IMG/VR virus record: IMGVR_UViG_3300028048_000115
Location: 18,061-82,060 of that record
Source: a virus
Taxonomy: Duplodnaviria; Heunggongvirae; Uroviricota; Caudoviricetes
Reading direction: 5' to 3' (one strand)
DNA length: 64,000 bases
Part shown: piece after piece, positions 3,875 through 5,100 of the stretch
How positions within the stretch are numbered: the first letter of the stretch is position 1
How the letters are laid out: each line of letters opens with the position of its first letter
Position numbers and translations under genes: made by a program
The notes under the pieces: generated by a model
Database searches by the model: none
What the model saw: only the letters and a program-made list of their open reading frames with translations
Told to the model about the DNA's origin: nothing

Positions 3875-4036
3875 AAACGTTAATTTTCTTATGTGTATGC
3901 GGAACAAGCGCTGACGAAATTTTTGGTGTGCTTGTAATGAAATTCGGTTTTGAGTTTTTAATAAACAGAAATCAATGGTTCCAAACGTGTTGTCACAAAT
4001 ATTGTAGAAGCAATGGAATATCGTTCAATTAAAAAG

Positions 4037-4058
4037 ACACCCAACTGGGTGTCTTATT
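4037..4058. terminator. bidirectional intrinsic terminator hairpin AAGACACCCA-ACT-GGGTGTCTT between convergent genes
   Basis: perfect 9-10 bp GC-rich stem between the 3215-3874 (+) and flagellin (-) genes. Confidence 0.55.
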
Positions 4059-4081
4059 AAGCGCCAAAATTTGAGTTTTTG

Positions 4082-4930
4082 TTAACCACCCAAAAGACTT
4101 AAAACGATTGACTGTGAACTGTTTGCTTGTGAGAGCATAGCAACGGCTGCCTGTTGTCTAATCTGATATGCAGTTAAGTTTGCTGTTTCCTCAGCACTAT
4201 CGGCATCCCTAATTCTCATACGAGAGTCTTCGGTGTTTGAAATAACGTTGTTTTGGTTTTCAATTGCGTGGCCTAAACGATTAATCTTAGCACCTAATGT
4301 ACCACGATATGAGTCAACGTTTGAAATCATACCCTTAACAGCGTCAAGTGCTTTGTTAGCACCCTCTTGAGTTGAAATATCCAACTGTGCTAAGGTAACG
4401 TCATCACTTCCTGATTTTCCCTTGCAAAGATCGGTCATACTTTTCATTGTTAAGTCAATGGTATCTCCAGAGTTTGCACCAACTTGGAACTTCATTGTGG
4501 TTCCATTAACACCGTCAGCGAGAACCTGTTTATCGTTGTATGAAGTCTTTTCACCAATACGCTGAATTTCTGTGATTAATTCTGAAACTTCTGCCTGTGC
4601 TGAAGCACGGTCTGCTGAGGTGTTTGTACCATCTGCGGCCTGGTTTGCAAGAGTTCTAATGCGGTCGAGCATAGTTGTAACTTCTTTCATGGAACCTTCA
4701 ATTGTTTGACAGTATGCAATTCCTGAATTTGCGTTACGGTTACCTTGAGTTAAACCGTTAATCTGTGTTGTCATTCGGTTTGAAATCTGTAAACCGGCGG
4801 CGTCATCGGAAGCAGAATTGATACGTAAACCAGTTGTTAAACGTTCCTGGGTCTTTACAAGTTTATCAGTAACGTTGTTATAGTGCTTTTGGTTCTTGAT
4901 TGACTGAACATTTGTGAGCATGCTTAACAT
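4082..4930 (-). CDS. flagellin (conserved N- and C-terminal D0/D1 domains, short variable region, about 283 aa)
   Basis: GLRINSASDDAAGLQISNRM N-terminal motif and a C-terminal ...LSQANSSQSIVLSLLGG; start chosen at the internal ATG (MLSMLTNV), which has an AAAGAGGAAA RBS. Confidence 0.85.
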   Translation of the reverse strand: MLSMLTNVQSIKNQKHYNNVTDKLVKTQERLTTGLRINSASDDAAGLQISNRMTTQINGLTQGNRNANSGIAYCQTIEGSMKEVTTMLDRIRTLANQAADGTNTSADRASAQAEVSELITEIQRIGEKTSYNDKQVLADGVNGTTMKFQVGANSGDTIDLTMKSMTDLCKGKSGSDDVTLAQLDISTQEGANKALDAVKGMISNVDSYRGTLGAKINRLGHAIENQNNVISNTEDSRMRIRDADSAEETANLTAYQIRQQAAVAMLSQANSSQSIVLSLLGG

Positions 4931-5100
4931 TTTTATTTTCCTCTTTAATGGATTTTGAACTAATTTCCTAAATAACAGGAAACTCATTGATTTTTTAAAT
5001 CATATATTATTAACGTTCAAATTAAAAAAAACTTTAGTATTGACTTTTAATTTTTTTTATTTTATAATTAAAAGAAAAAGTTTTATTGAGGAATTTTGTA

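Follow-up and report, generated by a model that had tools for sequence, protein, structure and literature searches.

We examined a 64,000-nucleotide stretch of DNA, here called the window, from the IMG/VR virus record IMGVR_UViG_3300028048_000115 and found that it carries a flagellin gene at positions 4082-4930 of the minus strand. We hold with high confidence that this gene is a bona fide phage flagellin that is maintained by selection. The source is a rumen-type community, and the gene content of the window indicates that its genome is apparently that of a T4-like (Straboviridae-type) myovirus with a virulent lifestyle. With considerably less certainty, we lean toward the view that the gene, a moron of this phage, would be transcribed with the aid of the host flagellar sigma factor FliA (sigma-28), and that its product would enter the filament of the infected cell. 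The locus has the following parts.

4082..4930, minus strand: flagellin coding sequence (CDS), 282 amino acids, stop codon included in the coordinates; identified with Pfam, AlphaFold2, Foldseek, and alignment of homologs
4937..4946, minus strand: ribosome binding site (RBS) AAAGAGGAAA, 6 nucleotides 5′ of the ATG at 4930
5010..5036, minus strand: predicted FliA/sigma-28-type promoter, TAAAGTTT-N11-AACGTTAA, 79 nucleotides 5′ of the ATG
4026..4055, minus strand: intrinsic terminator with a 9-bp GC-rich stem (AAGACACCC/GGGTGTCTT), a 4-nucleotide loop, and a T tract, 27 nucleotides past the stop codon
5040..5068, plus strand: strong divergent sigma-70-type promoter, TTGACT-17-TATAAT, with 11 of 12 matches in a consensus scan, which points into gp44

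The open reading frame (ORF) that holds this CDS spans 4082-4987 on the minus strand and has 301 codons for amino acids. The ATG at 4930, inside this ORF, is the true start and follows AAAGAGGAAA by 6 nucleotides when the sequence is read directly. An earlier interpretation of this DNA, made from the letters alone (the sequence-only reading), had described a strong RBS at an internal ATG, and this RBS is indeed present at 4946-4937. The start is further backed by the alignment of homologs, all of which open with M-[IL]-S-[LM]-L-T-N. Likewise, the length of 282 amino acids is shared with all homologs and with the gene calls of public assemblies.

The protein has the canonical D0/D1 termini that the sequence-only reading recognized, and both Pfam profiles are covered nearly end to end. 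Flagellin_N (PF00669) matches with an E value of 4.2e-36 over profile positions 2-136 of 139, and Flagellin_C (PF00700) matches with an E value of 1.7e-20 over positions 1-86 of 86. An AlphaFold2 model (pLDDT 82, from an input alignment of 17 relatives) predicts helices at residues 2-33 (N-terminal part of D0) and at residues 40-99 and 105-128 (D1), a small beta region at residues 129-187, and a long helix at residues 188-281 that forms the C-terminal parts of D1 and D0. When the model was compared with the PDB using Foldseek, the top 30 matches were all flagellar filament or flagellin structures (TM 0.75-0.8). The best of these were Shewanella FlaA/FlaB filaments (41-42% identity) and the E. 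coli and P. aeruginosa filament cores. As modeled, the protein shows a complete, canonical, minimal flagellin fold that consists of D0 and D1 only. Two outcomes that would speak against a flagellin are best matches to non-flagellin proteins (Foldseek) and missing D0 helices (AlphaFold2), and neither occurs.

A bacterial-looking gene in a metagenomic phage sequence might be a neutral passenger of recently captured host DNA, or it might have been joined to phage DNA by a chimeric assembly. This explanation draws on the composition of the gene, which has the highest GC content of the 62 genes in the window (0.40 compared to a mean of 0.334; z = 2.3), on its opposite strand, and on the mobile elements around it. 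The sequence-only reading had placed the gene above a background of roughly 30% and had taken the neighboring ORF at 3215-3874 to be GC-elevated as well. Although the elevation of the flagellin gene is real, the background is about 33% rather than 30%, and the neighboring ORF (0.34) sits at the window mean. Furthermore, the excess in the flagellin gene arises mostly from codon position 2 (rank 1 of 62) and therefore reflects amino acid composition, not recent transfer. GC content at codon position 3 is 0.336 (z = 1.2, rank 9 of 62), which is near the phage level, and bacterial flagellin genes also exceed their own flanks by 3-5 points of GC. For these reasons, the horizontal transfer that the sequence-only reading deduced from GC content finds little basis there, and we rejected recent transfer on this evidence. 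The gene is largely ameliorated to phage composition.

The recurrence of the gene and the way it varies also contradict the passenger and artifact explanations. The same flagellin junctions are present in independent JGI and Logan assemblies, drawn from at least six independent samples and several assemblers, which rules out an assembly chimera. In a search of 5.8 billion proteins, the identical flagellin protein was found on 8-9 contigs from at least six samples. Among copies from the lineage of the window, there are seven variable sites, and all seven are synonymous and at third codon positions. For L003 and L011, two members of a sister lineage (loci and contigs are given L numbers hereafter), dS is 0.129 and dN is 0.015, for a dN/dS of 0.12. 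The gene is thus under purifying selection inside phage genomes, and the synonymous-only variation together with this ratio means that it is functional for the phage. In addition, the gene is kept across phage lineages at 56-60% protein identity and at different loci, and no bacterial sequence in the 5.8 billion proteins exceeds 52% identity. We therefore give almost no credence to a neutral passenger or a chimera.

Beyond the identical copies, the protein search returned 16 clusters at 56-60% identity, followed by none above approximately 52%. In L003, L011, and L012, which belong to the 56-60% group, the flagellin gene is flanked by genes for a helicase and Thy1, and gp13, gp15, and endonuclease VII are encoded close to it. 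In L001/L013, a 154-kb IMG/VR genome of the same group, it lies among tail-fiber genes, and the flagellin locus of L171 resembles that of L001. The phage flagellins of this group are therefore found at differing genome positions. In neighbor-joining trees with 100 bootstraps, the window flagellin and its phage relatives form a clade with 98% support (90 taxa) or 89% support (97 taxa), and this clade nests within flagellins of rumen Succinivibrionaceae/Aeromonadales.

A scan with one genome per species placed the best bacterial matches almost only in Succinivibrio, Anaerobiospirillum, Succinatimonas, Succinimonas, and Aeromonas, at 44-52% identity. The nearest metagenomic bacterial loci carry FleQ, PseB, PseC, flagellin, three Maf proteins, FliS, and FliD, and their FleQ and FliS are 79% and 68% identical, respectively, to those of rumen Aeromonadales/Succinivibrionaceae metagenome-assembled genomes (MAGs). 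Because the nearest bacterial flagellins belong to Succinivibrionaceae/Aeromonadales, the phage probably infects a flagellated bacterium of the Succinivibrionaceae (Aeromonadales) in the rumen or gut. Two further signals of the host are a TnpB homolog (59%) annotated in Succinimonas and the closest gp43 relatives, which belong to T4-like Vibrio phages. The sequence-only reading had suggested a search for the closest bacterial flagellin, as a pointer to the donor or host clade, and for the gene in related phages. The closest bacterial flagellins are those of Succinivibrionaceae/Aeromonadales at approximately 52% identity at most, and flagellins are found in several other large phages. Six low-GC loci that were considered as further phages (L016, L020, L021, L023, L024, and L036) proved to be bacterial, with FleQ, PseB/PseC, flagellin, Maf, FliS, and FliD.

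Flagellin relatives are present in only 11 of 50,697 GenBank phage records, which agrees with the view in the sequence-only reading that flagellin in a lytic-type T4-like phage is unusual. These 11 matches are weak, mostly short, unannotated, or prophage-like, and none was recognized as a T4-type genome, as judged by name, length, and host rather than by marker genes. A wider scan of IMG/VR gave flagellin relatives on at least 121 viral contigs, the majority of which are prophage calls from isolate genomes. Several large metagenomic phages also carry the gene. L014 and L177 have a sheath gene and gp44; the gp44 of L014 is 60% identical to that of the window, and its flagellin gene likewise adjoins gp44. 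L178 is a 158-kb genome, L179 is a 125-kb genome whose RNA ligase is a homolog of that of the window, and L180-L182 and L184 are further large metagenomic phages with flagellin. These additional flagellins occupy at least three further branches of the tree: L177 clusters with Succinivibrionaceae MAGs (71%); L178 is paired with L179 (100%), and this pair joins a Succinivibrio faecicola group (77%); and L180 pairs with L184 (93%). Such scattered branches mean that phages either captured flagellin genes several times or did so once, long ago, and later exchanged alleles with their hosts.

A sharp mosaic was observed in L172 (ENA ERZ27297880 k141_569369), where the CDS at 777-1616 encodes flagellin P0014. 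From the upstream PseC gene through the sigma-28 promoter to the first ~240 nucleotides of the CDS, the sequence agrees with the bacterial L024 type at 96-100% identity, whereas the remainder is 85-97% identical (98% at the protein level) to the P0015 type of the phage clade. The longest exact run common to the two parental types is 22 nucleotides, which makes a k141 assembly chimera unlikely. P0014 suggests that phage-host recombination occurs within flagellin genes and that some hosts are Aeromonadales of the L024 type. Allelic exchange between phage and host flagellins is plausible.

The T4-like character of the window was read from several of its genes. The gp44 clamp loader is encoded at 5086-6006 on the plus strand (Pfam AAA and Gp44_lid). 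The gp43-type polymerase is 48% identical to that of T4-like Vibrio phages and matches 2,624 phage records, mostly T4-type by organism name. Further T4-type genes in the window encode gp32, endonuclease VII, RNase H, a T4-type terminase N-domain, and NrdG, and there are also genes for RNA ligase, NrdD, DNA ligase, and a glucosyltransferase. The late-promoter motif TATAAATA occurs 21 times in the window compared to 9.7 expected occurrences, for example before the tail gene at 48452. Among the ORFs of at least 110 amino acids in the 64-kb window, which is part of the genome, we found neither an integrase nor a repressor family. GenBank phages include no relative of the window at the nucleotide level, a search of IMG/VR did not return the phage itself, and tRNA and Rfam scans of the window gave no matches.

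The promoter is the feature that would connect the phage gene to the flagellar program of the host. The sequence-only reading noted a FliA-like −35 element upstream of the gene and considered the −10 match to be weak. On the minus strand, the −35 element TAAAGTTT is present at 5036-5029, and after a spacer of 11 nucleotides it is followed by the −10 element AACGTTAA at 5017-5010. The −10 core, CGTTAA, is identical to that of GCCGTTAA, a form of the element that is frequent 5′ of Succinivibrionaceae flagellin genes. The −10 element is therefore better than weak, and the match of the site as a whole to a sigma-28 position weight matrix (PWM) is moderate. In the bacterial relatives, the corresponding arrangement TAAAG-N14-GCCG[A/T/C]TAA sits 50-120 nucleotides 5′ of the flagellin ATG.

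The pattern TAAAG-N16-CGWTAA has a single occurrence on both strands of the window, where 0.15 would be expected by chance. This pattern was composed after the site had been seen, and hence we also made the PWM from 41 distinct sigma-28-type sites that lie 5′ of the flagellin genes of bacterial relatives. The site upstream of the phage flagellin gene ranks third among ~128,000 positions (both strands of the window), and the two sites with equal or higher scores (27074+ and 36506+) are inside long plus-strand ORFs. No T4-type late promoter TATAAATA is present upstream of the flagellin gene even though the motif is enriched elsewhere in the window, and therefore control by a T4 late promoter was ruled out.

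Similar sites precede flagellin genes in other phages, as listed below with their PWM ranks.

L014: perfect TAAA-N15-GCCGATAT, 38 nucleotides before the ATG; rank 1 in its locus
L180: TAAAG-N14-GTCGATAA; rank 1 in its locus
L173/L174: TAAAG-N14-AACGCTAA; rank 1 in their loci
L003/L011: TAAAGAAA-N11-GAGGCTAA; ranks 5 and 3 in their loci
L178/L179: TAAA-N15-GTCAATAA, visibly homologous to the site in L014; ranks 5 and 15
L184: TAAA-N14-AGCGATAA; rank 65, with a spacing that is off by one and hence a low PWM score
L001: the top-ranked site (rank 1) lies 473 nucleotides upstream, ahead of a small ORF

The recurrence of predicted class III promoters before phage flagellins of different branches is the strongest argument for expression by host FliA. 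Sigma-28 control, as proposed in the sequence-only reading, thereby gains comparative support from the rank of the site in the window and from like sites in independent flagellin-bearing phages.

Two observations concern the surroundings of these other flagellin genes. In L003, L011, and L012, an exact GCCGATAA (the sigma-28 −10 consensus) lies ~70 nucleotides past the flagellin stop codon in a 430-nucleotide non-coding stretch. No TAAA is present at the proper spacing from this sequence, which may be a remnant of the next flagellar promoter of the donor. In L177, a tRNA-like 3′ end (GGGTTCGAATCCC...CCA) is located at ~7890-7960, immediately upstream of the flagellin gene.

Taken with its RBS, sigma-28-type promoter, terminator, and opposite strand, the flagellin gene of the window is a self-contained cassette. 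The hairpin after its stop codon, at 4055-4034, is the sole terminator-like site within 3700-5400. The gene is also the sole credible minus-strand gene among the plus-strand early genes in this part of the window, and its promoter shares an intergenic region with the sigma-70-type promoter that reads into gp44. It therefore has the properties of a phage moron, namely its own promoter and terminator, a location between conserved phage genes, and atypical orientation and composition. No FliS, FlaG, FliD, CsrA, or Maf was found in the phage flagellin loci, even at E ≤ 1. The ORF at 3215-3874 was dropped as a candidate for a conserved flagellin partner because it has no homolog beside other phage flagellins. 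In L006 and L007, which are siblings of the window sequence, an extra 205-222 bp is present between this ORF and the terminator region, where the window has 18 unrelated bases at 3877-3896.

A mobile element is located near the cassette, and it raises a different explanation for the presence of the flagellin gene. The relevant features are as follows.

1860..3220, plus strand: IS200/IS605-type TnpB-only element of ~1.36 kb, between the UDP-galactopyranose mutase gene and ORF 3215-3874
1939-3171, plus strand: tnpB CDS, 410 amino acids, with Pfam OrfB_IS605 and Cas12f1-like TNB domains
4963..5008, minus strand: repeat in the flagellin 5′ untranslated region (UTR) with a stable hairpin (UUUCCUG...UAGGAAA) and an ~80% match to the tnpB 3′ end at 3074-3122 of the plus strand

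Phage flagellin genes are known that adjoin genes for TldR, a repressor derived from TnpB. The flagellin gene of the window might likewise belong to an RNA-guided remodeling module in which the TnpB protein represses the flagellin promoter of the host, or it might have been brought in as TnpB cargo. The sequence-only reading favored cargo after correctly noting an intact tnpB gene two genes away, at a distance that amounts to 0.9 kb. A further link is the UTR repeat, which matches the tnpB 3′ end at 39 of 49 positions (blastn), including 20 of 21 in a core 21-mer, with an estimated p of ~0.02 after correction for the 1.4-kb query. The repeat folds with an energy of −12.3 kcal/mol (z = −2.3), but its 45 nucleotides do not suffice for a guide-RNA scaffold. 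Two public contigs, L005 and L009, end inside it.

The distribution of the element contradicts both forms of this explanation. L006 and L007 lack the TnpB block, whereas their flanks are 98-99% identical to those of the window and their flagellin is identical. Their empty site holds 16 bp in place of the element, which leaves ORF 3215-3874 overlapping with the galactopyranose mutase gene. Because flagellin is kept in siblings without the block, TnpB is independent of flagellin. Moreover, no TnpB or TldR was found in the sequenced flanks (3-10 kb) of the flagellin genes in L001, L003/L011, L014, L171, and L177-L179. The idea of acquisition as TnpB cargo, which the sequence-only reading put forward, consequently fails.

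The TnpB protein itself is unlike a repressor. Its relatives form hundreds of clusters at 80-86% identity, all 410 amino acids long, and D187 (IDLG), E327/E328 (QEESYTSK), and D369 (NADINGALN) are invariant across this large, actively spreading family, whereas TldRs are RuvC-dead or truncated. We take this D/E/D pattern to be the “relocated glutamate” RuvC arrangement (compare TnpB and Fanzor) and to be nuclease-competent. To judge by these residues, the catalytic triad is intact and the protein is not a TldR. Rfam gave no annotated guide RNA in the window. The right-end flank of the element (3172-3262) has only chance 12-mers in common with 1.47 Mb of Succinivibrionaceae-type flagellin loci, a comparison made with loci of the candidate host family and with an approximate omega-RNA boundary. 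The GC content of tnpB (0.25) is the minimum of the window. With RuvC and TNB domains, site polymorphism, and multiple related copies, the element has the hallmarks of an IS200/IS605 TnpB-only element, and it is an independent, recent, selfish insertion outside the flagellin module. We set aside the TnpB-cargo/TldR model on the strength of the empty-site siblings, the intact triad, the large active family, and the lack of TnpB near other phage flagellins, and we regard it as highly improbable.

Other traces of such elements are present in the window. A 104-nucleotide solo remnant at 39603-39706 of the plus strand resembles the right end (omega-RNA region) of the TnpB element. An exact TATAAATA lies at 1908-1915 (plus strand) within the left end of the element, 24 nucleotides 5′ of the tnpB start, and the element may be expressed from this phage late promoter. 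A second, unrelated TnpB-like ORF of ~218 amino acids at 57555-58211 (minus strand) consists of the C-terminal half with canonical IENL, CxxC...CxC, and DRDYNSA motifs. We detected nothing like the missing N-terminal half in its vicinity, and this ORF is a truncated or decayed copy.

The best-studied phage flagellins nonetheless provide a useful comparison. In Enterobacter and other Enterobacteriaceae, the prophage flagellin gene fliC_P and TldR bring about flagellin remodeling, wherein a temperate-phage flagellin works with the TnpB-derived repressor and converts the flagellum of the lysogen; csrA- and flagellin-associated TldRs are known from Clostridia (bioRxiv 10.1101/2023.11.30.569447, Wiegand et al.; PMC13418256, Walker et al., Nat Microbiol 2026). 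The phage of the window is similar in that it carries a flagellin with conserved D0/D1 and a predicted FliA/sigma-28-type promoter that would tie it to the host flagellar program, and the presumed result in both cases is host filaments made of phage flagellin. However, the fliC_P phage is a temperate siphovirus, whereas the present phage is T4-like and apparently virulent. In the known system, TldR and a guide RNA act on the host promoter, whereas here there is no TldR and the TnpB is intact, unrelated, and dispensable. The large D2/D3 outer domains of the known proteins are absent from the flagellin described here, and the hosts are Enterobacteriaceae or Clostridia in one case and probably Succinivibrionaceae in the other. 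The gains ascribed to lysogenic conversion (gut colonization and immune evasion by the lysogen) do not apply in the same way to the phage studied here.

We can now outline how the flagellin might act in an infected, flagellated cell. Host RNA polymerase (RNAP) bearing FliA (sigma-28) would transcribe the phage gene, and expression would thereby be coupled to an active flagellar regulon. The conserved D0 termini would permit chaperoning and export of the product by the host flagellar type III apparatus, followed by polymerization under the host FliD cap. Thus, the filament built during infection would consist of phage flagellin, either pure or mixed. Infection by T4 normally shuts off host genes. 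After such a shutoff, the phage copy would be the main flagellin supply, and no specific repressor such as TldR would be needed. Export and polymerization are the steps that we infer from the conserved termini. Two benefits are plausible: the infected cell might be kept motile and chemotactic through the latent period, which would resemble the supply function of an auxiliary metabolic gene (AMG), or the filament surface that serves as a receptor or antigen might be altered. Among the roles proposed for this gene, remodeling or supply of the host filament appears to be the best fit, and nothing supports a role as an immune decoy.

The protein might instead act outside the filament, by titrating FliS or a regulator, by jamming the export gate (which would halt flagellar synthesis by the host and save energy), as a secreted decoy, or as a virion-associated fiber. 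Flagellins of the phage clade begin with a conserved sequence of their own, M-[IL]-S-[LM]-L-T-N in place of MALYVNTN, contain two invariant cysteines, and diverge by at least 40% from every bacterial flagellin, and these traits could signal a different function. The cysteines were rejected as a phage-specific trait, however, since both are also present in bacterial relatives (in 55 and 21 of 262 sequences). The position of the flagellin gene of L001 amid tail-fiber genes would suit a fiber, whereas the window, L003, and L014 lineages place the gene among genes for replication and nucleotide metabolism, and the presence of a flagellar class III promoter without a phage late promoter argues against a virion protein. 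A lytic cycle also leaves little time for filament growth. Nevertheless, D0 and D1 are conserved over their full length, and the best structural matches are assembled filaments. We consider a role outside the filament to be unlikely, though it deserves more weight than the TldR model.

Several points weigh against incorporation of a FliA-driven phage flagellin into the filament, which is the reading that we still favor, if only slightly. The promoter site of the window has a PWM score of 14.2, at the bottom of the training range (13.3-30.8), and its −10 element fits the consensus at only 5 of 8 positions, or at 6 of 8 when compared to the GCCGTTAA variant. No sigma-28-type site was found upstream of the flagellin genes of L171 and L177. 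There is no phage FliS, FliD, or glycosylation partner near the flagellin gene, and the closest bacterial loci carry Maf glycosyltransferases, which may be needed for assembly. The activity of FliA-RNAP during a T4-type infection is an assumption of the model. The lytic cycle is short for the rebuilding of filaments, and an existing filament can be extended but not replaced. Likewise, the Succinivibrionaceae host is deduced rather than demonstrated, as are the steps that go beyond an intact, conserved gene.

The relationship to host genes can be viewed from two further directions. Compared to the polar flagellins of Aeromonadales (Succinivibrionaceae and Aeromonas FlaA/FlaB) and to Shewanella FlaA/FlaB, the phage proteins belong to the same family and share the fold and the sigma-28 promoter architecture. 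They are similar in length or slightly shorter (278-283 amino acids compared to about 275-325 for the bacterial proteins), with 45-52% identity to Succinivibrionaceae and Aeromonas sequences and 41-42% identity to the Shewanella filament structures. The bacterial genes are accompanied by FleQ, PseB/PseC, Maf, FliS, and FliD, whereas the phage gene stands alone and its product has its own N-terminal signature.

T4-like phages are also known to carry morons and AMGs, such as psbA in cyanophages. Like these, the flagellin gene is a host-derived gene for an abundant host protein that is under purifying selection in a virulent T4-like genome and has an autonomous promoter and terminator. It differs in that flagellin is the subunit of an extracellular organelle that requires the host secretion apparatus, and in that its expression apparently depends on an alternative host sigma factor and not on phage early or late promoters. 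FlaA is listed among the morons of predicted Nitrosospira phages (bioRxiv 10.64898/2026.05.02.722434), which is another instance of flagellin annotations in phage genomes. In the passage concerned, the entry is an annotation list for phages of other hosts, which are not called T4-like, and it comes without analysis of promoters, phylogeny, or selection. The fliC_P-TldR papers and this preprint were the only full-text literature found on flagellin encoded by phages, viruses, or prophages, and nothing relevant was found that combines flagellin with T4-like phages, AMGs, or the rumen. Phage flagellin has hitherto been characterized in temperate phages only.

Additional features of the genome were observed outside the flagellin cassette. 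Just upstream of the flagellin region (30-1874 of the plus strand, and 3113-7057 of L005) are genes for UDP-galactopyranose mutase, two TAGT-type (T4 alpha-glucosyltransferase-like) proteins, and a Caps_synth-type glycosyltransferase. This cluster may provide a DNA hypermodification that contains galactofuranose, and a tie to flagellin glycosylation is conceivable. The gp43-type ORF at 6015-7625 (plus strand) has only 536 amino acids, which comprise the exonuclease domain and part of the polymerase domain, and a dUTPase gene is directly next to it; some T4-like phages have a split polymerase, and the same may apply here. The NrdD gene at 59154-62414 (minus strand, 1086 amino acids) has an internal homing-endonuclease or intein-like insert. 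In L006, the gp44 gene (185-814) runs into an Intein_splicing ORF at the point that corresponds to window position 5405, and thus inteins are polymorphic between strains. The window also encodes a 341-amino-acid reverse transcriptase (49867-50892, minus strand; Pfam RVT_1, 2.8e-17), an actin-like protein (42304-43284, plus strand; ALP_N and MreB-like_C), and an SPFH/Band_7 protein (31554-32447, plus strand).

The new element in these findings is a flagellin under selection in lytic-type T4-like genomes that has no dedicated repressor. It is present in several phage lineages and on several branches of the flagellin tree of the host family, usually with promoters that appear to be driven by the host flagellar sigma factor. 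We can offer only tentatively, and with more doubt than conviction, the broader proposal that T4-like phages of rumen and gut Succinivibrionaceae routinely carry a FliA-wired flagellin, which would take over the flagellin supply during lytic infection and maintain or re-tool the flagellum for dispersal, for chemotaxis toward nutrients or new hosts, or for receptor masking, and that recombination with host genes would make them a reservoir of varied flagellins. Because the gene, the promoter, and a candidate host clade are defined, the system lends itself to direct experiment. If the product enters the filament, then lytic phages would alter, while they infect a cell, either its motility or one of its major surface antigens and receptors, which would represent a new class of host-takeover or AMG function. 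Flagellar remodeling by phages would then extend from lysogenic conversion to the lytic cycle, with no need for an RNA-guided repressor. Such a function would bear on the dispersal of rumen and gut phages, on competition with flagellotropic phages, and on the origin of flagellin diversity, for which phages would be both a reservoir and a generator of H-antigen-like variation in their hosts.

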